A DNA stretch of 34,048 nt from Defluviitaleaceae bacterium (lineage in GTDB: Bacteria; Bacillota; Clostridia; Lachnospirales; WRAX01). The notes below the pieces were generated by a model. It made no database searches, was not told the DNA's origin, and saw only the letters and a list, made by a program, of their open reading frames with translations. The stretch covers positions 1 to 34,048 of the forward strand of contig WQVB01000001.1 of the NCBI GenBank assembly GCA_009781815.1, written 5' to 3'. How positions within the stretch are numbered: position 1 is the stretch's first letter; the number at the start of each line of letters is the position of its first letter. The translations under genes were made by a program, and so were the position numbers. Shown piece by piece: positions 3,810 through 34,048 of the stretch.

Positions 3810-3989
3810 CCCTACCGTCATCCCGTGCCCTCACAGTTCGTCATCCTGAGCCCTTGGTCTTCCTGCTGTCGCAGGCAGAAGGGTAAGACTTGACTCAGGA
3901 TCTAATTGGAGAAGGGCAGGCTTAGTTGGGTGTCCACTATCATACATAGATCCTGAGTCAAGCTCAGGATGACGACTAGGAAGGGTGGG
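3810..3989. repeat. Composite repeat locus B: F1 unit (3840-3973) with a 38-nt F2 insertion in its left hairpin
   Basis: GTCATCCTGAG[CCCTTGGTCTTCCTGCTGTCGCAGGCAGAAGGGTAAGA]CTTGACTCAGGATC, then the conserved spacer, then GATCCTGAGTCAAGCTCAGGATGAC. It lies between the DUF512 stop and the der start. Confidence 0.85.
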
Positions 3990-6130: not shown

Positions 6131-6280
6131 CCACTAGTCATCCCAATTTGCTCATCTATCGTTGTAGGGAAGGGATTTATCCCTTCCGACATTATTGGAT
6201 TATCACTCACTAATCCTTCAGATAGGCAAGGCGGAGTGGATGAATCCACTCCCTACAAGGTTAAACTAAATTGACGTCAT
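6131..6280. repeat. Family F3 palindromic unit (core 6164-6256) with outer arms
   Basis: GTAGGGAAGGGATTTATCCCTTCCG, a 43-nt spacer, then CGGAGTGGATGAATCCACTCCCTAC. Outer GTCATCCCAATTTG / CAAGGTTAAACTAAATTGACGTCAT arms are related to those at 17018-17146, 18838-19032 and 23824-24010. Confidence 0.85.
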
Positions 6281-6380
6281 CCTGAGCTTGACTCAGGATC
6301 TATGTATGATAGTGGATGCCCAACTAAGCCTGTCCTGCTCCAATTAGATCCTGAGTCAAGCTCAGGATGACAACTAAGGA
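6276..6380. repeat. Family F1 palindromic unit (cleanest copy)
   Basis: GTCATCCTGAGCTTGACTCAGGATC, spacer CTATGTATGATAGTGGATGCCCAACTAAGCCTGTCCTGCTCCAATTAG, then GATCCTGAGTCAAGCTCAGGATGAC. It abuts the yraN stop codon. Confidence 0.9.
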
Positions 6381-6746
6381 TCATTCCCCAAAAACATTCT
6401 CTATATGCTCAATCTCCAAAACCTCTCGCCCAAAAACACTTAAAACATCAAAACGGCAGGCTGCATCCCACTTTTTCTCTTCATAAAGGTAGGCCTTTGC
6501 CGTCTTCACAATTCTTTTTTGCTTAGCACGGGTTATAGCCTCTAGCCCATCACCAAAGCCAGCACCACGGCGATATTTAACCTCTATAAAAACAATATAC
6601 TCCCCATCTTGGGCTATTATATCAATTTCTCCATCATATTTTTTGTAGTTTTGCTTTAAAATTTCATACCCCTTGCCTTGCAAGTAGCCAAGCACAACCG
6701 CCTCGCCATAATTGCCCTTATCTTTGTTAGCATCCACCTCAATCAC
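6381..6746 (-). CDS. yraN: YraN family (UPF0102) endonuclease-like protein
   Basis: 121 aa with the GEIDIIA....VFIEVKYR...G motif typical of UPF0102. Confidence 0.85.
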   Translation of the reverse strand: MIEVDANKDKGNYGEAVVLGYLQGKGYEILKQNYKKYDGEIDIIAQDGEYIVFIEVKYRRGAGFGDGLEAITRAKQKRIVKTAKAYLYEEKKWDAACRFDVLSVFGREVLEIEHIENVFGE

Positions 6747-9931: not shown

Positions 9932-10052
9932 CCCTCCTAAGTCGTCATCCCGTGCTTGACACGGGATCTATGTATGATAGTGGACAACCTCAACTAGGAC
10001 TGCCCTTCTCCAATTAGATCCCGTGTCAAGCACGGGATGACGACTTAGGGGA
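9932..10052. repeat. Family F1 unit, CCCGTG/CACGGG stem variant
   Basis: CCTAAGTCGTCATCCCGTGCTTGACACGGGATC, the conserved spacer, then GATCCCGTGTCAAGCACGGGATGACGACTTAGG. Both hairpins carry the compensated stem. Confidence 0.9.
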
Positions 10053-10136
10053 GTTTAATGCCTTTTAGTTTTACTACAAGCCTAATGACGAAAGGTAGAG
10101 CGTTAGTCGAAATGGCAAGAGGGGCTGGGATGGTAA

Positions 10137-10796: not shown

Positions 10797-10945
10797 AAAA
10801 ACCCTCCTAAGCGTGATAATCAGCTAGGAGGTGAATTTAAAAAATAAAAAAGCACCAGCTTCCCTTCGGCAGCATTATCTGCATCAGGTTATAAGGGTAT
10901 TTCTCAGCCTCTACATAAGTAGCAGCACCCCTAGCTTTATAGTTG
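10797..10945 (-). promoter_or_regulatory. TPP (THI-box) riboswitch with expression platform
   Basis: Minus-strand RNA reads GCUAGGGGUGCUGC..GGCUGAGAAAUACCCUUAUAACCUGAUGCAGAUAAUGCUGCCGAAGGGAAG, which contains the conserved CUGAGA, ACCUGAU and AGGGAA blocks. The downstream CACCUCCUAGC can pair with the SD UAGGAGG of thiT. Confidence 0.9.
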
Positions 10946-12865: not shown

Positions 12866-12985
12866 CCCTCCCTACCGTCATCCTGAAGCTTGACTCAGGA
12901 TCTAATTGGAGAAGTAGACAGCCCTAATCAAGGTATGCACTACCCCACATAGATCCTGAGTCAAGCTCAGGATGACGGTAGGGGA
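12866..12985. repeat. Family F1 unit (reverse orientation)
   Basis: CCTACCGTCATCCTGAAGCTTGACTCAGGATC, spacer CTAATTGGAGAAG...CACATAG, then GATCCTGAGTCAAGCTCAGGATGACGGTAGG. Confidence 0.9.
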
Positions 12986-19886: not shown

Positions 19887-20074
19887 ATTGCGGATCAAGT
19901 CAGCTAATAAACCTGTTGTTGAGTCGACCCCCTAAGTCGTCATCCTGAGCCCTTGGTCTTCCTGCTGCCGCAGGCAGAAGGGTAAGACTTGACTCAGGAT
20001 CTAATTGGAGGAGGACAAGCCTAGTTGGGTATGCACTATCATACATAGATCCCGTGTCAAGCATGGGATGACGA
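19887..20074. repeat. Composite repeat locus I: F4 half-hairpin remnant plus F1 unit (19939-20072) with the same 38-nt F2 insertion as locus B
   Basis: GTCATCCTGAG[CCCTTGGTCTTCCTGCTGCCGCAGGCAGAAGGGTAAGA]CTTGACTCAGGATC ... GATCCCGTGTCAAGCATGGGATGAC. The track ORF 19900-20097 is a translation of this repeat. Confidence 0.85.
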
Positions 20075-23040: not shown

Positions 23041-23147
23041 TATCGTCATCCTGAGCTTGACTCAGGATCTAATTAGAGAAGGGCACTCCTAATTAGGGTA
23101 CGCACTATCCCACATAGATCCTGAGTCAAGCTCAGGATGACGAGTAG
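23041..23147. repeat. Family F1 unit overlapping the 3' end of tmk
   Basis: GTCATCCTGAGCTTGACTCAGGATC, spacer CTAATTAGAGAAGGGCACTCC...CCACATAG, then GATCCTGAGTCAAGCTCAGGATGAC. The tmk stop codon (23089-23091) lies in the spacer. Confidence 0.9.
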
Positions 23148-23823: not shown

Positions 23824-24152
23824 ACCCCTAAGTCGTCATCCTCATCTCACGTCAATCTAATTTGGAACTTTTACCATTGTAGGGAACCCTGAATCAAGTT
23901 CAGGGCAGGCTCCTTTATGCGTTCCGCCTTGTCTCTCTGAAGGATAAAAAGGTGCAAACCCAATAACGGAATGGATAAATCCATTCCCTACAAGGTTAAA
24001 TTAGATCGACATTTCCCGTGCTTGACATGAGATTTATGTGGGTTAGTTCATATCCTAATTAAGGCTGCCCTTCCCTAATTAGATCCTGAGTCAAGCTCAG
24101 GATGACGACTTGGAAGGGTTGAGTGGCGTTTCGCTACAAGTCTAATGACGTG
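23824..24152. repeat. Composite repeat locus K: F3 unit (23879-23991) carrying an inserted CCCTGAA-TCAAG-TTCAGGG hairpin, a degenerate F1 unit (24012-24106), and a GCTACAAGTCTAATGACG fragment
   Basis: Direct reading. Outer arms are CCTAAGTCGTCATCC (23827-) and GGATGACGACTTGG (-24113). Confidence 0.85.
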
Positions 24153-26170: not shown

Positions 26171-26455
26171 GTCATCAGACCTGTAGCGAAACGACCCTAA
26201 GTCGTCATCCTGAGCTTGACTCAGGATCTAACTGGAGAAGGACGCAGCCCTAAAATATGGCATGCACTACCCCATGTAGATCCTGAGTCAAGCTCAGGAT
26301 GACGTAAGGGGGCACAGTTTTGCTACAGGTCTATTGCGGGCCCTTGGTTGAGCTTGGTTTTAAGCGAAACTTGATCCGCAATCCCCTTTCTAGTCTGAAT
26401 AATTCAGGAAGGAAGGGGATCCTGAATCAAACCTTGCCAAGGGTTCAGGATGACA
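26171..26455. repeat. Composite repeat locus L (last one in the window): F1 unit (26204-26303) inside AGACCTGTAGCGAAAC / GTTTTGCTACAGGTCT arms, then F4 hairpin with a 30-nt insertion (26333-26382), then CCTGAA/TTCAGG hairpin with a 12-nt palindromic insertion
   Basis: Direct reading of inverted repeats. Details are in the findings. Confidence 0.85.
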
Positions 26456-26494: not shown

Positions 26495-26523
26495 TTGAAA
26501 ATATACACTAGATATGGTACAGT
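26495..26523 (+). promoter_or_regulatory. Putative promoter of the small toxin-like ORF
   Basis: TTGAAA (26495-26500), 17 nt, TGgTACAGT (-10 at 26518-26523). Confidence 0.45.
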
Positions 26524-26586
26524 GTTATCAAGAGCAATCAAAAAAGCAAGGCGGTTGGCGACCCTCCTAAGAAAGGAGGTGATACC

Positions 26587-26694
26587 ATGTCTAATTTTGA
26601 AATCATTTTAGTTGTATTTGGTTCAATAACTATTGTTTTTGAGCTGATAAAGCTTATGATACATATTTTAGATATATTTTCTCAAAGAAAATAA
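26587..26694 (+). CDS. 35-aa hydrophobic peptide, holin-like (Hol-Tox type) type I toxin candidate
   Basis: ATG 26587 has AAGGAGG 7 nt upstream. The peptide MSNFEIILVVFGSITIVFELIKLMIHILDIFSQRK ends at TAA 26692-26694. It has one TM helix and a basic tail, and is below the ORF-track size cut-off. Confidence 0.55.
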   Translation: MSNFEIILVVFGSITIVFELIKLMIHILDIFSQRK

Positions 26695-26764
26695 CCGCCC
26701 TGGCGAGGTAACGGTTATTTCATAATATCCAATACTTGAAGCCAACCGCTTTGCGATTGCTCTT
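26685..26764 (-). ncRNA. Predicted ~80-nt antisense RNA (candidate type I antitoxin)
   Basis: It is bounded by the minus-strand promoter at 26771-26799 and by the hairpin plus U-tract at 26720-26684. It is complementary to the toxin stop codon and 3' UTR. This is a prediction only. Confidence 0.4.
26689..26720 (-). terminator. Hairpin AAATAACCG / CGGTTATTT followed on the minus strand by UUUUCUUU
   Basis: 9-bp stem (26689-26697 with 26712-26720) and a 14-nt loop. The U-rich tract is present only in the minus-strand reading. Confidence 0.45.
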
Positions 26765-26769
26765 TTTAT
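26741..26769 (+). terminator. Imperfect hairpin plus T-run, probable 3' end of the toxin mRNA
   Basis: GCCAACCGC-TTT-GCGATTGC followed by TCTTTTTATT. Confidence 0.35.
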
Positions 26770-26770
26770 T

Positions 26771-26799
26771 ATTATATCAAAAACATTTCACATATGCAA
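26771..26799 (-). promoter_or_regulatory. Near-consensus sigma-A promoter facing the toxin 3' end
   Basis: Minus strand reads TTGCAT (26799-26794), 17 nt, TATAAT (26776-26771). It lies just downstream of the deacetylase stop, with no ORF behind it. Confidence 0.5.
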
Positions 26800-26822
26800 G
26801 ATATTTTTTAAGCCACTCTAAA

Positions 26823-27587
26823 CTAAAGTGGTATTTGCCTTCCAGCATGGTCAAGCTTATAACCATCACGCATTATAAGGTCGCTTACCGTTATAAAGCT
26901 ATAGCCCTCATTTTTAAGGTCTGCCATTATTTTGCGAAGGGCAATGGGCGTTTCAGGTATATCACAATGAAAAAGGATGATAGAGCCATTTTGCAAGTTT
27001 TTGTGCTTTAACACCCGCTCTGTCATGGCCTCTGGCGTTGGTCTTTTCCAATCCAAACTATCCACATCCCATTGTATTGTGTGGTAGTTTATAGACTCCG
27101 CCGCTTTTAGCACCGTGTCGTTAAACTCGCCATAAGGCGGGCGGTAAAGGTCCATCTCTATGCCAAGCACCCCTAGCACACGGGTGTGGGCTGCGGCTAT
27201 CTCTTCCACATTTTGCTCAAAGTTAAGCTTTGCCACATGGGCATGGGTGTCGCCGTGGTTGGCTATGCAATGGCCCGCTTCGTAAAATTTGCGTAAAGCA
27301 TCGGGGTATTTATCAACCCAATACCCACACACAAAAAACGTAGCCTTTGCGTCAAACTCATCTAAAATCTCGATTAGCGTGTCGGTGTCATCTGCCCCCC
27401 ATGCGGCGTTTAGGGTGATAGCAACCACCTTTTCATCCGTTTGGGTTGAAAAGATAGGCAGCATCTTTTCCGCCCCAAACACATTTTGTATGGTGGGGGC
27501 TATCAATATTAAAGCCAAAAGGGCAACGGCCATCCCCACTATGATTTTTGTCATTTTGATGGGGTTAAATTCTCTATTTCTAATCAT
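26823..27587 (-). CDS. Polysaccharide deacetylase (NodB domain), PdaB-like
   Basis: N-terminal TM anchor, then VAITLNAAWGADDT, KATFFVCGYW, ANHGDTHAH, RPPYGE and ILFHCD. The start is set at ATG 27587, which has GAGGTG 6 nt upstream (the track start is a GTG 9 nt further up). Confidence 0.8.
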   Translation of the reverse strand: MIRNREFNPIKMTKIIVGMAVALLALILIAPTIQNVFGAEKMLPIFSTQTDEKVVAITLNAAWGADDTDTLIEILDEFDAKATFFVCGYWVDKYPDALRKFYEAGHCIANHGDTHAHVAKLNFEQNVEEIAAAHTRVLGVLGIEMDLYRPPYGEFNDTVLKAAESINYHTIQWDVDSLDWKRPTPEAMTERVLKHKNLQNGSIILFHCDIPETPIALRKIMADLKNEGYSFITVSDLIMRDGYKLDHAGRQIPL

Positions 27588-27675
27588 ATCTTTCACCTCA
27601 AATATTAATTTCTATTGCTTCTAAATTAATATTCCAAAACAGCGAAAAAATATGACAAGTTTATATTTTGATACA

Positions 27676-28536: not shown

Positions 28537-28605
28537 TGAGAAAACAGGCCAGTGAAACTCAAGAGCAAGACAACTCTAAAATTATGAATATTGGAGGATT
28601 TTCAC

Positions 28606-28932
28606 ATGAGCCAAGCAACCAACAACCATACTGTTTTTGCTGAAACACCAGCCGCCGAATATTTATCAAAATACGGCATGATGCGACGCAACTACCTCGA
28701 AGAATATCAGCCTGACCTTTACGCCGAACTGCTTCGCAATGGGGAGCTGAAATCCCATTGCTTAGAAATTCAGCAAATAGCCGAAAACAGGCTTAAAAAC
28801 ATGATGAGGCAATTTGCAACTCATAACCCACCCCCAAACCGCAACACAGATGGGCTTGCGTGGGCTGCTCATATGAGTATGCTCAAGCGTTCAGTTGAGG
28901 AAATTATCTTTGTGGAGCTGATTTACGAATAA
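28606..28932 (+). CDS. tnpV: TnpV-family transposon-associated protein (Tn4451/Tn4453 type)
   Basis: ATG 28606 has GGAGG 8 nt upstream. YLEEYQPDLYAELLRNGELKSHCLEIQQIAENRL...GLAWAAHMSMLKRSVEEIIFVELIY follows the TnpV pattern (LL.SG.L..YL.....A....; W...MN.I......I...E.I). Confidence 0.65.
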   Translation: MSQATNNHTVFAETPAAEYLSKYGMMRRNYLEEYQPDLYAELLRNGELKSHCLEIQQIAENRLKNMMRQFATHNPPPNRNTDGLAWAAHMSMLKRSVEEIIFVELIYE

Positions 28933-29010: not shown

Positions 29011-32000
29011 TTATGAATCATCTCTCAGATAATACTCGCTCAAACGCTTATAGTGTTCAGGGATTTCAATGCCATTGTCGTGGGCATATCTATATTCCCA
29101 ACGAGTTCCGCACTCGTACTTCTGTGAAAATGCCCTAAGTTCATTCCAAGTACGAACTGCGCTTAAATCTTGTTGCTTTGCTTCATTCAATCGTCGCTTG
29201 TGTTCGTTGATAACATCGGTTTGGACTTTGAGTTTGCCATCTGATTCTTCTGTAACAAAACCTCGTTTTTCTAACCATCTAAGTGCAATTTCAAATCTTT
29301 CTTTGATAACCGCACCTTGCCGTTGCCAACCATAACCATATAAAGCTGTGTCCTTGAATAGTCCTGTTTTATCAAGTCCGAAGTCTGATTGAAGCACGTT
29401 AAACATTGTGTTTATTGTATCATTTGCGGGTATGTCCTTCATTTGACTTCCGTAGTATTTCGACCTTACGGCAATTACTTTTTGACGAGCACCTTCTCTT
29501 GCGCTTTCATGAGCTGTTTGGGTGCTGACATCTAAAAAATCGGAGGCCTTGGCGGTCGGCACAGAAGAAGCAGGCATAACTTCACGATACCCATCAATGG
29601 CATTTTGAACAGCTTCCAATAATCGCGCTCCCTCGGTATGGCGGTCTTTTATCCAGTCGGTAGACCAAATACGATAAATTTTCCAGCCCATATCTTCAAG
29701 TACGGTTTGGCGAAGCCTGTCACGCTCTCTTGCCGTTCGTGCGGAGTGATACATCGCACCATCACACTCAATTCCAATGGCAAACCTTCCGTTGTATTTA
29801 GGGTGCTTAACAGCCATATCAATGCGATACCCAGAACAGCCAATTTGCGTGGCTACATCATAACCGTGACTGGTAAGGAACTCATGTACCGACACTTCAA
29901 ATGGCGAATCAAACCACAAATCATCACTTGTCGAAATTTCTCCAAGTATAGCCTGTTCACCGTTTATAGCAAAGTCGATATACTGTCGTAATAGTTTGGG
30001 ACCAAGGCTATTAACACGATCAGCAGCTATGTCTGTAGGCAAAATCGACCCAACAAGTTTTAAGTTATATCTCGCCCTTGTAACTGCAACGTTAAGTCTG
30101 CGTTCACCGCCATTACGACTTAATGGCCCAAAATTCATAGCAAATTTTCCTGTAATATCAGGAGCATAACCTATACTAAAAATTATTGTGTCGCGCTCGT
30201 CACCTTGAACTGTTTCGAGATTCTTAATAAATAAAGATTCCTCTTCGCCCTCCTTGAAAAATACTTCGAAGTCCCAATTTTTACGGCGTTTTTCTTCAAT
30301 CGCTTCCGTGATGGCAGCTTCTTGAACTTTTCCGAAGGCAATGATACCCAGACTTCTCTCAGGGCTTGTTCGAAAATGTTCAAAAACAAGTTCAGCTATT
30401 TTTTCTGCTTCGGCTCTATTACCGTTTTTCCCGCCTTTATCGTAAGTTCCACCAACTACATGAATATATTCAACACCCATACCACTAACTTTTTCGGAAG
30501 CAGATGGAAAAGTGGTTAGGGTACTTTGATATATTTTGGCGTTAGAAAATGCAATTAAATGTTCATGACGGCTTCGATAATGCCAAAGGAGTGTTTGTGA
30601 GGGTAACATTGATGCTTCTTCTAACAATGATTCGTATGCTCCTGTATCGTCAACTTCGCCATCTTCATCTTCCTCGTATTCATCGGATGTTGACAACGAG
30701 GATGTAAAGAAATCCGTTGGTGGTAACTGCTTACTATCACCTGCTATAATTACTTGCTTTGCTCTGAAAATTGCACCTATCGCATCTTCCGTCCGCACCT
30801 GTGATGCTTCGTCAAAAATAACAACATCAAATTCATAATTGCTATTGCCGAGATACGTGCTTATGGATAGCGGTGACATCATAACACAAGGCTTTAAGGC
30901 AGGAAGAAGATTGGGCAAATTAGCAATTAGCAGCCGTGTGGGCATCAATTTTCGCTGTTTTGCCATTTCACGGCGCAATAAAGCAATTTCACCGTTTGCT
31001 GAAAAGGCATCAAAATTAGGCAAGCGTGAAATTAGCTTGGAAAACACCATTGCTTTTGAAATTTCTAAATGCTGCTTGTCAAGGTCACGGAATAGAGCAA
31101 CCCTTTCATCTTGCCTTAAACGCCTAAAATCATGGATTGATGAATACTTAGGTATAACCGCATCTAACCACGAACGGAAAAAGCATTTTTTGAAGATTGG
31201 TACAATTTCTTCGGCTGTCAACTCGAGTTCCTTTGCTTTTTCGAGGTACGAATCAATGCTTAAATCGGCAAGCCATTTTTCTGCAATCCTAAAGTCTATA
31301 AGATACTCCAAACTCGCAAAGTTTTCCTTGCAGTTTTGCAAGGTTTCCATGAGCTTAGCCAAAACATAGTACCGTAAACCTTGTTTAGCTTCAAACAACT
31401 GCGCAAACTTGTCAAACGAAGGCATAGTTGCAATTTGCCAATTGCGAAGATTTGATATGTTTTCGTCCATCGAATTTCGGAGTTCATCGTTGTTTTCTGA
31501 AACTAATTTAATGAAACGTGACCCTAAACTATATTCTTTAACAAACTGCTTCATTTGGCCACACCATTCCAAATCAAATTTCAACTTAGAAAAATCAGTC
31601 TGGTCGTTAATGACAATGCCGAGAAACATAGCAAAATCCTTGTTTCGGTCTTGCATGGTGCTTTCATTTTTAGCCAGTTGAGAGCGATACCCCGATTCTG
31701 CTTGCTCCATAGCTGTAAAAAGCAATTGACGAGCGAATGCAAAATTGCTTTCAGCATTTGTCTTAGCGGAGCGGAAACCCGGTTCTGTATTTGTTATAGC
31801 AAACAATAGCCCCTCAATGCTTTCATTATAGGCAGACTTAACAGAAGCCAATAAATTCACATAGTCCGACAAATCCTGTTCGGCCTTTGCCATTTCTAAT
31901 TCGTCGGATTTATGCTTGGCTTCGGCATTAACAACGGTCTTTGTCTGCAACTCAAAGGCATTTTTCTTTAATAGGGCATCATTCGCATTATCAAGCAAAG

Positions 32001-34048
32001 ATAACCCTTCATCATAAGTTAATTTTGAAGCTGTTTTGCAGAACGCCAAAATAGCCTTTCTGTCCTTTCCATATTGCCCAATCAAGCGCGAGAGCATAGA
32101 GCGATACTGAACCCTATACCGCCCCAACATTGCCGGCAAATCCAATGAGAGCAGACCTAAATCAAAGTTTGAAGATAAGGCATCACGTGCGGCTTCCCAC
32201 GATTGCTTTGCCGCTTCTAATAAATCGGTTTCAGTAGCAAGCTGAGAACCACTTTGCACATGGCGAGCTTGCGCTGCTTTGCTTGTTTTTTCAATCCCAT
32301 CTTGTTGAACAGCTATATCGTTGAGCCGTTGCAACGCTTCGTTATATATAAAAGCCGTGTCGGAGTCCAAAACACTATCGTTTATTGCACGGTTAGCTTC
32401 AATATTGTCCTTTATCGTATTAGTGGCAGAAATAAAAGTGTCAAATTCATTTGTGGCCATCGCCAACGCCTTTAGCGAAACGTTATAACCTTCAATATGA
32501 TTTGATACTGAAGCGTTCGTTGTGTAAATTTCATTGCTTGTATTGACCGATGCTTTAATGCTATCAAAATCTGCTAAAGCAGCTTCGAGCGTTGACTTCG
32601 CTTCATTTCTTGCTAAACGAGCAGATTCACAGATTTCAAGCGTCCCATTCGCTTCGTTCAAATCTAAGGAAACCCATAGTGAAGGAAAAACAGGAGATGT
32701 TTTTGCAAAATTAAATAGCTCTTGGATTTCTGCAATGCTAAACAAACCCCACGAATAGTCGGAGTCTAAAATTTGATTTGTAGTAGAAAATAAAACCTTG
32801 CCTTCTTGAAGCTGATTCATAAATTGCTCAGAATCAACAATAAACCGTTGCCTAAACTCATGCGTTGGTGGCTGTGCCAATATACAGCCATTCCAAGGGT
32901 TGTTTTCTTGATAACCACTCTTTGACACAATTCTGGTAACTTCTTCGAGTGCGCTCTCGCAACCAGCCAATAGGGACGGAGTAAAGTTTTCTGCGTTTTC
33001 CTGAATAAAATCAATGTTGCGGTAATTATCAAACTTTGCTAAATGGCCTGTCACTTGATAAATTGTTTTGCCAAGTGGTTCAACAATCGTGTGTAACTCT
33101 ACGCTGTATTGATTCAAGTTCTTCCGAACATCCTTCAGCCGATATAGGATGTTGTAGGCAGATTGTTGTATGTTCGCCTTTTGACGTGACATTTTTACGG
33201 CTTTGTCGAGTTGTTCAAGAATATCTCTACGCTTGGCTGTGTGGCTATGTAGCGTCAGACAAAACGATGCCAACCCCACATTCGTCAGCCGTTTATAAAC
33301 AACTTCGAGTGCAGCCATTTTTTCGGATACAAATAATACTTTTTTGCCATCAGCAATAAGTTCGGCAATCATATTCGTTATGGTCTGGCTTTTTCCAGTA
33401 CCCGGGGGTCCTTGCAACACAAAACTCGCACCACGCTTAGCAAGCAATATGGCATCTTGCTGGCTTGAATCGGCATCAACAACAGAAAATACATCTTGTG
33501 GTTCTGTATTGTCATGGCTATATGTGCCAATGTCGGACACATCGGCTCCATCACGTAAAACTTCGCCGTTTAATGTTCTCACAATATGGTGGTTGCTGAT
33601 TTTATCAGCATTGCGCTCAATATCAAGGTACATATTTATTTTCATAAACGAAAACATTGAAAGTTGAGATGCGTCGTTTGTAACAGTCCAGCCCAACGAA
33701 GCAACGGCTTGTTCGACATTATCAAGATAATCTGAAAGCTCCATATCTTCATTAAATGTCGGCAAAATGATACCAAAATCGCCAAGTAATTTTTGAGCTA
33801 ACGAATGGTTGGCATTTATTTCTTGTTCGGAGCGCGATAATATTATAGGTGAAAATAAATCCTCTTGTGAAAGTTTAACTGGCAATAAAAGAAGAGGGGA
33901 ACGAATTTCTTGCCCCTCTGTGCCGTTTTCTGCCCAATTAAGAAAACCAAAAGCCAAGTGAAGTGCATTTAACCCTTTTTCCTCGGTAAACTCACGTGAT
34001 TTTTTCATTAGGCTACGAAGAGTTTTATGTGCTTCCTTTGGAACTTGG
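29011..34048 (-). CDS. DUF4011-type Upf1-like SF1 helicase fused to a Vsr/DUF559-like endonuclease and DUF3320-like C-terminal region; N-terminus beyond the right edge
   Basis: The frame is still open at 34047 (..QVPKEAHKTLRSLMKKSREF..), giving at least 1678 aa. Motifs: GFLNW..LLLLPV, Walker A GPPGTGKSQ, Walker B FDEASQ, WHYRSRHEHLI, VQGDERD, NVAVTRAR, then YRIDMAV..IECDG..YH...........DR.R...L...GW...RIWSTDW. Confidence 0.85.
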   Translation of the reverse strand, partial: QVPKEAHKTLRSLMKKSREFTEEKGLNALHLAFGFLNWAENGTEGQEIRSPLLLLPVKLSQEDLFSPIILSRSEQEINANHSLAQKLLGDFGIILPTFNEDMELSDYLDNVEQAVASLGWTVTNDASQLSMFSFMKINMYLDIERNADKISNHHIVRTLNGEVLRDGADVSDIGTYSHDNTEPQDVFSVVDADSSQQDAILLAKRGASFVLQGPPGTGKSQTITNMIAELIADGKKVLFVSEKMAALEVVYKRLTNVGLASFCLTLHSHTAKRRDILEQLDKAVKMSRQKANIQQSAYNILYRLKDVRKNLNQYSVELHTIVEPLGKTIYQVTGHLAKFDNYRNIDFIQENAENFTPSLLAGCESALEEVTRIVSKSGYQENNPWNGCILAQPPTHEFRQRFIVDSEQFMNQLQEGKVLFSTTNQILDSDYSWGLFSIAEIQELFNFAKTSPVFPSLWVSLDLNEANGTLEICESARLARNEAKSTLEAALADFDSIKASVNTSNEIYTTNASVSNHIEGYNVSLKALAMATNEFDTFISATNTIKDNIEANRAINDSVLDSDTAFIYNEALQRLNDIAVQQDGIEKTSKAAQARHVQSGSQLATETDLLEAAKQSWEAARDALSSNFDLGLLSLDLPAMLGRYRVQYRSMLSRLIGQYGKDRKAILAFCKTASKLTYDEGLSLLDNANDALLKKNAFELQTKTVVNAEAKHKSDELEMAKAEQDLSDYVNLLASVKSAYNESIEGLLFAITNTEPGFRSAKTNAESNFAFARQLLFTAMEQAESGYRSQLAKNESTMQDRNKDFAMFLGIVINDQTDFSKLKFDLEWCGQMKQFVKEYSLGSRFIKLVSENNDELRNSMDENISNLRNWQIATMPSFDKFAQLFEAKQGLRYYVLAKLMETLQNCKENFASLEYLIDFRIAEKWLADLSIDSYLEKAKELELTAEEIVPIFKKCFFRSWLDAVIPKYSSIHDFRRLRQDERVALFRDLDKQHLEISKAMVFSKLISRLPNFDAFSANGEIALLRREMAKQRKLMPTRLLIANLPNLLPALKPCVMMSPLSISTYLGNSNYEFDVVIFDEASQVRTEDAIGAIFRAKQVIIAGDSKQLPPTDFFTSSLSTSDEYEEDEDGEVDDTGAYESLLEEASMLPSQTLLWHYRSRHEHLIAFSNAKIYQSTLTTFPSASEKVSGMGVEYIHVVGGTYDKGGKNGNRAEAEKIAELVFEHFRTSPERSLGIIAFGKVQEAAITEAIEEKRRKNWDFEVFFKEGEEESLFIKNLETVQGDERDTIIFSIGYAPDITGKFAMNFGPLSRNGGERRLNVAVTRARYNLKLVGSILPTDIAADRVNSLGPKLLRQYIDFAINGEQAILGEISTSDDLWFDSPFEVSVHEFLTSHGYDVATQIGCSGYRIDMAVKHPKYNGRFAIGIECDGAMYHSARTARERDRLRQTVLEDMGWKIYRIWSTDWIKDRHTEGARLLEAVQNAIDGYREVMPASSVPTAKASDFLDVSTQTAHESAREGARQKVIAVRSKYYGSQMKDIPANDTINTMFNVLQSDFGLDKTGLFKDTALYGYGWQRQGAVIKERFEIALRWLEKRGFVTEESDGKLKVQTDVINEHKRRLNEAKQQDLSAVRTWNELRAFSQKYECGTRWEYRYAHDNGIEIPEHYKRLSEYYLRDDS

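Follow-up and report, generated by a model that had tools for sequence, protein, structure and literature searches.

The stretch of DNA analysed here (the window; 34,048 nucleotides, positions 1 to 34,048 of contig WQVB01000001.1, assembly GCA_009781815.1, from a Defluviitaleaceae bacterium) contains at positions 26495-26801 a candidate type I toxin-antitoxin cassette, a self-contained unit whose borders are formed by two convergent promoters. On the plus strand, the toxin promoter (26495-26523) consists of the -35 box TTGAAA (26495-26500), a 17-nt spacer and the extended -10 box TGgTACAGT (26515-26523), and it is listed by the promoter scan with a score of 9/12 plus TG. The predicted toxin mRNA of about 250 nt would run from 26530 to 26778. 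It begins with AAGAGCAAUC...GCAAGGCGGUUGGC (26530-26559), the 5' arm of a long helix, P1, that is visible as inverted repeats. Then comes a hairpin, CCUCCU-aagaa-AGGAGG (26563-26579), in which CCTCCT (26563-26568) pairs with AGGAGG (26574-26579); the latter belongs to the Shine-Dalgarno (SD) sequence AAGGAGG (26573-26579), 7 nt upstream of the ATG. The open reading frame (ORF; 26587-26694) encodes a peptide of 35 amino acids (aa), MSNFEIILVVFGSITIVFELIKLMIHILDIFSQRK, with a hydrophobic core at residues 5-28 and a basic tail, SQRK. Its stop codon TAA (26692-26694) is located in the 5' half of a further hairpin, the inverted repeat AAATAACCG/CGGTTATTT (26689-26720). A linker (26721-26740; no strand assigned), which varies more than any other segment of the module (entropy 1.61), separates this hairpin from the 3' arm of P1, GCCAACCGCUUUGCGAUUGCUCUU (26741-26764). 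A U-rich tract, UUUAUUAUUAUAUC (26765-26778), directly follows P1; it is the presumed 3' end of the toxin mRNA and overlaps the -10 box of the antisense promoter.

On the minus strand, the antitoxin promoter (26771-26799) has the -35 box TTGCAT (26799-26794), a 17-nt spacer ending in TGA and the -10 box TATAAT (26776-26771). The predicted antisense antitoxin RNA of about 85 nt (26680-26764) would consist of a 5' hairpin (26762-26739), a linker, a terminator hairpin (26721-26688) and a U-tract (26687-26680). Many of these elements had been named in a preliminary description made from the letters alone: the ORF and its hydrophobic peptide with a basic tail, the SD sequence with its 7-nt spacing and its hairpin, the plus-strand promoter and the hairpin at the stop codon are all present as it gave them. 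It had described the antisense RNA as complementary to the stop codon and the 3' untranslated region (UTR), which holds, and left out that the complementarity also covers the 3' half of P1. The element is in fact larger than was proposed there, as both P1 and the end of the toxin mRNA near 26778 had been missed.

Relatives of the cassette were collected by sequence searches. An exhaustive phmmer search with the window peptide against 1.84 billion representatives gave five matches (54-94% identity), all of them C-terminally anchored and two exactly 35 aa long. A 59-bit degenerate codon pattern derived from these matches found 41 loci, of which 38 are metagenomic, two lie on contigs of metagenome-assembled genomes (Clostridiales and Defluviitaleaceae) and one on an IMG/VR contig. 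A nucleotide profile (nhmmer) added tandem copies, bringing the total to about 45 related copies. The ORF, both promoters and all helices recur across these homologous copies. A collection of 15 billion proteins does not contain the exact window peptide; therefore, gene callers miss such genes. Exact-sequence look-ups of the window peptide and of the neighbouring deacetylase returned no record, and contigs looked up for P0122 and P0123 were not found. No match was obtained by tblastn with the window peptide against plasmids or with the family consensus against plasmids and phages, to which the low-complexity filter may contribute.

The ORF is intact in all of the approximately 45 copies, including those found with the profile; it has 34-36 codons and changes in length by whole codons. 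The preliminary description had suggested looking for relatives that keep the nucleotide sequence and lose the frame, and none of the copies is of this kind. Over the 20 codons left free by the search pattern, entropy was 1.38 at the third codon position, 1.02 at the first and 0.58 at the second. Frame conservation, this periodicity and the homologues described below show, on comparative grounds, that the 35-codon ORF is a conserved coding gene.

The peptide was assigned to a family through its relatives. Pfam PF16935 (Hol_Tox) matches 25 of 38 relatives, with a best E value of 5e-7, and four of the ten relatives tested exceed its gathering score of 23.3 bits (27.4-29.9 bits), with residues 1-35 aligned to positions 1-34 of 34. 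NCBIfam NF041589, 'type I toxin-antitoxin system toxin PepG1', matches 24 of the 38 (best E = 1.1e-6) and does not match the window peptide. A profile made from the four relatives that pass the Hol_Tox threshold finds the window peptide with 49.1 bits (E = 2.4e-14); among 1090 small ORFs of the window, the runner-up reaches 6.8 bits. The search with a Hol_Tox model that the preliminary description had recommended thus fails for the window peptide itself and succeeds by way of its relatives. These sequence relationships place the window copy in a divergent clade ('MSNFEI...ITIV') of a Hol_Tox-related subfamily. A profile search against the PDB gave only generic matches to transmembrane helices and was set aside.

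The toxin mRNA is predicted to be highly structured. The two arms of P1 pair over 23 bp and enclose the SD hairpin, the ORF and the stop-codon hairpin. Because the 3' arm pairs with the 5' arm, the toxin transcript must reach to about 26778. The RNA 26528-26778 has a minimum free energy of -83.4 kcal/mol, compared with -47.3 +/- 4.7 for shuffled sequences (z = -7.7; 0 of 200 shuffles). A nucleotide profile built without the window's clade matched 26532-26779 with 182 bits (E = 1e-55), and profiles of the untranslated regions alone, again without this clade, still matched the window (5' UTR, E = 2.6e-12; 3' region, E = 8.8e-16). The consensus fold of 24 aligned loci contains P1 (23 pairs), the anti-SD/SD hairpin and the stop hairpin. 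When all 35 pairs of these three helices were scored in the 24 loci, 96.7% of the cells were paired, compared with 34-51% when the partners were slid by 1-3 columns. Fourteen of the 35 scored pairs changed on both sides, which none of 500 shuffles equalled; the shuffle control ignores relatedness, which is accounted for by the slid-partner control and the two-sided changes. The sub-helices of P1 alone were 93.8-97.5% paired and held 12 of the 14 two-sided changes, and in two loci (L027 and L036) a whole sub-helix is exchanged, from GAGCAAUC/GAUUGCUC to GGCGUUGC/GCAACGCC. In P1, G·U occurs 48 times and A·C four times, and P1 was therefore assigned to the plus-strand RNA. The duplex of its two arms is worth -40 kcal/mol, compared with only -4.2 kcal/mol for the local plus-strand hairpin of the 3' arm.

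The SD hairpin has a predicted energy of -9.0 kcal/mol, and its pairs covary in the family (CG/UG/UA; G·U 21 versus A·C 6). The mean probability of being unpaired over 24 loci is 0.10 for the SD sequence and 0.20 for the AUG. The stop hairpin has an energy of -12.2 kcal/mol, with nearly invariant stems (entropy 0.09 and 0.32) and a variable loop (1.11). The covariation together with the modelled fold shows a toxin mRNA that would close on itself and sequester its SD sequence. Such an mRNA, closed by P1 and with a locked SD sequence, a largely paired start codon and a stop codon inside a hairpin, would therefore be intrinsically poorly translated. The U-rich tract after P1 is kept in the 24 loci, and the 3' end of the toxin mRNA would lie in it (26765-26778). 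The terminator scan flags nothing at the cassette because the loops of both hairpins are longer than 8 nt. In a subgroup of three loci (L019, L028 and L033), a strong terminator that resembles the hairpin SL4 of bsrG comes straight after P1.

Both promoters keep their position and sequence among the relatives, and their spacers diverge, which answers the question of promoter conservation raised in the preliminary description. For the toxin promoter, 29 family loci share a 17-nt spacing and the consensus TTGAAA...TGnTATAAT. For the antisense promoter, 35 loci were compared: the -10 box is TATAAT in 25 of them, the -35 box is TTGCAT in 19 and mostly begins with TTG or TTT in the others, and the spacing is 17 nt in 27. 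Most of the antisense spacers, including that of the window, end in TGn and have otherwise diverged. The antisense -10 box ends 73-91 nt past the stop codon in the 25 loci of the main group and up to 111 nt past it in the subgroup with the extra hairpin. The promoter scan listed another minus-strand site within the ORF, TTGAGA-18-TATCAT (26685-26656; 10/12). It was rejected because its -35 box is the reverse complement of the S-Q codons, which are different in most relatives.

The two-hairpin design of the antisense RNA is predicted in 25 loci, with lengths of 83-101 nt. In the window, the 5' hairpin reaches -9.5 kcal/mol through G·U pairs specific to the minus strand (UG:20, CG:5), whereas its plus-strand counterpart reaches -4.2 kcal/mol. 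The terminator hairpin has an energy of -13.4 kcal/mol and is followed by UUUUCUUUG. The U-tract, UUAUUUUCUUU, is the reverse complement of AAA AGA AAA TAA, which encodes the last residues K-R-K and the stop of the toxin. These codons are near-invariant across the relatives, synonymous positions included, which fits a double constraint and would be expected if they also encode the antisense U-tract. The predicted RNA is fully complementary to the last codons of the toxin and its stop hairpin, as well as to the linker and to the 3' arm of P1. In the comparison of loci, these results show a convergent antisense promoter, a putative terminator and the complementarity that an antitoxin would need. 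Where tandem copies occur, variation of the hairpin loop and the linker probably sets the specificity of each copy for its own antitoxin.

The closest relative, L007, is homologous to the window from the plus-strand -35 box to just beyond the minus-strand -35 box. Because homology ends at these borders, the unit of inheritance is the cassette of about 300 bp between both promoters. Within the cassette, the RNA stems and the 3' arm are more conserved (entropy 0.09-0.35) than the ORF (0.68). Repeat and nucleotide-profile searches found no second copy of the module within the window. The genes around it encode a TetR protein, an MFS protein and a polysaccharide deacetylase (26823-27596, minus strand). 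The nearest deacetylase loci (L001-L006) have no module and have other neighbours; therefore, they provide neither a syntenic comparison nor evidence of an empty site.

Tandem arrays occur elsewhere. The nucleotide profile detects three copies in L032 and in L028/L047 and two copies in L009, L044 and L034. Head-to-tail arrays were located at L032 9774-10675, L028 1379-2293 (the same as L047 5304-6218), L009 1694-2263 and L044 425-1002. In such arrays, the antisense -35 box of one copy is only about 15 nt from the sense -35 box of the next, and the extra copies encode peptides of 34-36 aa, two of them with a GTG start. The three-copy array of L047 is within a siphovirus-like prophage region and adjoins the tail genes Sipho_Gp37 and SPP1_Dit (L047 170-3146); this contig, which is the same as L048 in IMG/VR, is also listed as a viral contig. 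From the L047 record, the sample series Ga0131853 can be tied to 'Lab288', which stands for the gut of the termite Labiotermes labralis (PMC7024585), and the remaining samples presumably come from a habitat of this kind. In L007, an insertion of about 46 nt (536-581), which forms a small hairpin of its own, separates the anti-SD/SD hairpin from the ATG. Only GGGTGAT remains there as an SD sequence before the intact ORF, and this copy may be weakened or under different regulation. On L034, a second, different module (1663-1819) encodes a 26-aa peptide, MSVYETITLMIAFATLVYVITRDKKK, behind an SD sequence; it scores 36.2 bits on Rfam BsrG and has a more classical short Hol_Tox-like toxin.

The preliminary description had interpreted the locus as a type I module with a holin-like toxin and a convergent antisense RNA overlapping the toxin 3' end, in the layout of txpA/RatA and bsrG/SR4, and this is supported by the in-silico tests. 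With good confidence, we regard the window cassette as a genuine type I toxin-antitoxin module of the TxpA/BsrG (Hol_Tox) kind that lacks annotation and is built like bsrG/SR4; its function as a toxin-antitoxin pair is inferred from sequence-level evidence. Several observations weigh against this reading. Several of the invariant residues (M1, E5, F11, T15, D29, F31, S32 and K35) were imposed by the search pattern. The window peptide has no match in Pfam or NCBIfam even at E <= 10, so that its membership depends on transitive homology. The minus-strand promoter, which had been called near-consensus, is present, but this wording overstates its -35 box: TTGCAT agrees with TTGACA at only three of six positions, which is why the consensus scan omits the site, while the -10 box is perfect and is preceded by TGn. 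The promoter entropies, among them 0.55 in the toxin promoter boxes compared with 1.6 in the spacer and flanks, were computed after the best match had been chosen in each locus; the same conserved islands appear in an alignment free of this choice. A separate terminator hairpin (SL4) after P1 is missing from the window and from 23 loci like it, so that the manner in which the toxin mRNA ends is uncertain. Rfam RF01412 (BsrG) is the only Rfam family that matches the module itself, in the window and in several relatives, and all of its scores are below the gathering threshold of 55: 23.0 bits for the window (E = 0.001), 24.6 for L045, 31.4 for L033 and 37.9 for L013. Finally, a lengthening of the SD helix upon antisense binding, as brought about by SR4, is predicted for L022 and L027 and not for the window.

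Other explanations of the same features were weighed against the toxin-antitoxin reading. It is rather unlikely that the ORF encodes a small membrane protein under antisense control with a non-lethal physiological role, for example in the envelope or in a stress response, instead of one half of an addiction or growth-arrest pair. There are type I 'toxins' that lack toxicity in certain hosts and possibly have other functions (Fozo et al., PMC2887945), BsrG does not permeabilise membranes (PMC8309996), and the window copy lies amid ordinary chromosomal genes, in neither a prophage nor a plasmid. On the other hand, the characterised members of the Hol_Tox and PepG1 families, to which the peptide is homologous, are toxic, and layered repression by P1, the SD hairpin and the antisense RNA is, like tandem amplification, typical of toxic products. 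We give very little weight to the idea that the ORF is the holin gene of a phage lysis cassette, which the 'holin-like' name of the Pfam family and the three copies beside siphovirus tail genes in L047 would favour. Neither an endolysin nor a phage gene was found among the neighbours of the window copy, which are the TetR, MFS and deacetylase genes, and only the L047 copies are in a prophage. Moreover, type I systems are characterised by a conserved convergent antisense gene and a self-closing mRNA (PMC3834814), and tandem triplication is atypical for holins.

The two remaining explanations each deny one of the genes. A structured non-coding RNA or a mobile inverted-repeat element in which the 35-codon ORF is incidental would fit the inverted repeats that bound the cassette, the stronger conservation of the RNA stems than of the ORF and the dispersed palindromic repeat just upstream. 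We find this hardly credible, given that the frame is intact in all copies, with indels of whole codons, a 3-nt periodicity, conservative substitutions and a strong, well-spaced SD sequence. The asymmetry between G·U and A·C points to selection on the RNA of one strand and not on DNA, and the upstream repeat family does not include the module. Alternatively, there might be no antisense gene, the minus-strand hairpin and U-tract being the terminator of the deacetylase gene and TTGCAT-17-TATAAT a chance occurrence. The deacetylase gene does end 24 nt upstream of the -35 box with no other terminator, and the -35 box is weak by comparison with the consensus and the site unlisted by the scan. This, too, is most improbable: the hexamers, their spacing and the TGn recur in most relatives beside unrelated neighbours while the spacer diverges, the deacetylase loci compared for synteny lack the module, and the homology between the window and L007 ends just past the -35 box.

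Under the preferred reading as a type I toxin-antitoxin cassette, the sigma-70-type promoter at 26495-26523 would produce the mRNA of about 250 nt, from which the 35-aa peptide, a single hydrophobic helix with a basic tail, would be translated. The extended -10 promoter at 26799-26771 would produce the antisense RNA of about 85 nt that ends at the reverse complement of the stop hairpin. By analogy with SR4, the complementary hairpin loops of both RNAs would make the first contact, pairing would spread into a duplex of about 85 bp, and cleavage of the duplex by RNase III would destroy the toxin mRNA. The duplex would also strip the 3' arm from P1; the freed 5' arm could lengthen the SD helix in some relatives, and not predictably in the window copy. 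If the short-lived antisense RNA were lost, the toxin would accumulate in the membrane and stop growth or cause lysis. We infer loop-loop initiation, duplex formation, RNase III cleavage, toxicity of the peptide and instability of the antitoxin from what is known of bsrG/SR4 and txpA/RatA.

How the toxin mRNA would terminate where SL4 is missing can be considered further. P1 could itself serve as a terminator stem because the U-tract directly follows it, and in the modelled fold this is the most economical reading for a toxin mRNA that has no SL4. The arms of P1 are about 210 nt apart, and the U-tract doubles as the antisense -10 box. Furthermore, a GCGGUU/AACCGC core is common to four segments (26550-26559, 26693-26699, 26712-26717 and 26741-26749), which allow two mutually exclusive pairings. 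In one, the 5' arm pairs with the 3' arm and the stop hairpin forms; in the other, the 5' arm pairs with AACCGCC just after the stop codon (-14.8 kcal/mol) and the remaining two segments pair with each other. The helix of the 5' arm with AACCGCC is the one aligned by the Rfam BsrG model. The alternative pairings may constitute a folding switch, and such a switch may explain the invariance of the GCGGUU/AACCGC stems. Tentatively, then, the window's subgroup may have lost SL4 and use P1 as its intrinsic terminator stem, so that termination would depend on a free 5' end and the GCGGUU/AACCGC elements would act as a co-transcriptional folding switch; we consider the whole of this proposal possible and not probable. 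If true, it would be a compact, doubly overlapping regulatory design that is undescribed for type I systems.

Other features of the window were also recorded. Upstream of the module, nested inverted repeats at 26177-26332 (and 26365-26454) belong to a dispersed palindromic intergenic repeat of about 100-140 nt. Further copies with 72-87% identity are located at 3889-3977, 6274-6385, 9936-10056, 12870-12984, 19988-20074, 23043-23143 and 24014-24149, and none was found in the 48 fetched loci. The repeat looks REP-like (repetitive extragenic palindrome) or MITE-like (miniature inverted-repeat transposable element), and its weak Rfam matches (AaHKsRNA41 and MIR6457) are probably generic hairpin matches. 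Other weak Rfam matches in the region (rli28, c-di-GMP-I, SurA, and miRNA precursors on the upstream palindrome) were dismissed as chance or generic hairpins, and they do not recur in relatives. Downstream, a TnpV-family gene (28591-28932, plus strand) adjoins the gene for a 1665-aa protein (29011-34008, minus strand) with DUF4011, AAA_11/AAA_12 helicase and MTES_1575 restriction-endonuclease-like domains, and the segment 28591-34008, which is near the module, may represent mobile or defence-related DNA. A TPP riboswitch is located at 10844-10942 on the minus strand (71 bits; gathering threshold 54.3).

Compared with known systems, the cassette opens no new category of biology. In hok/Sok and aapA1/IsoA1 of Proteobacteria, the full-length toxin mRNA is translationally inert through a long-distance interaction between its 5' and 3' ends and through sequestration of the SD sequence. 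The window module would share this principle of inertness by 5'-3' pairing and SD sequestration. In contrast, their toxins are unrelated, their antisense RNAs target the 5' or translation-initiation region and not the 3' end, and activation by 3' trimming is documented there and only conceivable for the window module. No Rfam or Pfam match to the Fst families was found in the window or its relatives. Unlike the antitoxin of the Fst/RNAI-RNAII (par) system, which pairs with direct repeats at the 5' side and shares a bidirectional terminator, the window antisense RNA is not complementary to the 5' region of the toxin mRNA, and its 5' end is of the same sense as the 5' arm of that mRNA.

The cassette is closer to txpA/RatA of the Bacillus subtilis skin element, sprG/SprF of Staphylococcus aureus (PepG1) and EF3263 of Enterococcus faecalis, whose toxins belong to the same superfamily by hidden Markov models and whose antitoxin RNAs overlap the toxin 3' end. 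For EF3263, a relative of TxpA, a 3'-overlapping RNA of about 110 nt has been seen, and TxpA-like toxins in Clostridiales and tandem duplication of type I loci were reported in 2010 (PMC2887945). Decay of the duplex mediated by RNase III is a published mechanism, and location in prophages is typical (PMC6563280). The window peptide differs in that it is below threshold on both models, and no similarity of the module to these loci was detected at the level of nucleotides or RNA families. In addition, one frame of sprG1 gives rise to two peptides, and nothing similar is present in the window module. The window and its relatives add to this group an unannotated and apparently abundant TxpA/BsrG-type subfamily in uncultured Clostridia, at least some from termite guts, that is often tandem and sometimes in prophages.

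The closest counterpart is bsrG/SR4 of the B. subtilis SPbeta prophage. In bsrG mRNA, a long helix P1 joins nucleotides 1-35 to nucleotides 232-262, a 4-bp stem (SL1) holds the SD sequence, SL3 carries the stop codon in its 5' part, and the terminator SL4 follows one nucleotide after P1 (Jahn and Brantl, PMC3834814). SR4 has complementarity to SL3, to SL4 and to the 3' half of P1, and its terminator loop first contacts loop 3; upon binding, the 5' arm is freed, the SD stem is extended to 8 bp and RNase III-dependent decay ensues (PMC3834814). Both systems encode a small, hydrophobic toxin (38 aa in bsrG, 35 aa in the window) whose C-terminus is basic, and both have a P1 between the mRNA ends, an SD sequence in a stem and a stop codon in the 5' part of a hairpin equivalent to SL3. 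Both also have a convergent cis-antisense RNA that is complementary to this hairpin and to the 3' half of P1 and whose terminator is the partner of the toxin stop hairpin. Some relatives' copies lie in a prophage beside tail genes, as bsrG lies in SPbeta. They differ in that SL4 is absent from the window's subgroup, where the U-tract directly after P1 overlaps the antisense -10 box; the antisense RNA would have about 85 nt and two hairpins, compared with 183 nt and four hairpins for SR4; and the SD stem has 6-8 bp, compared with 4 bp in bsrG. The host is an uncultured lineage of Clostridia and not Bacillus, and the module is a prediction from sequence. This minimal layout, which does without a separate terminator, offers a natural test case in which 5'-3' helices, termination and antisense targeting are brought together within 300 bp. 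The bsrG-type mRNA architecture was previously grounded mainly in probing of one Bacillus RNA, and the approximately 45 natural variants of both RNAs provide unusually good comparative support for its P1, SD stem and stop hairpin.

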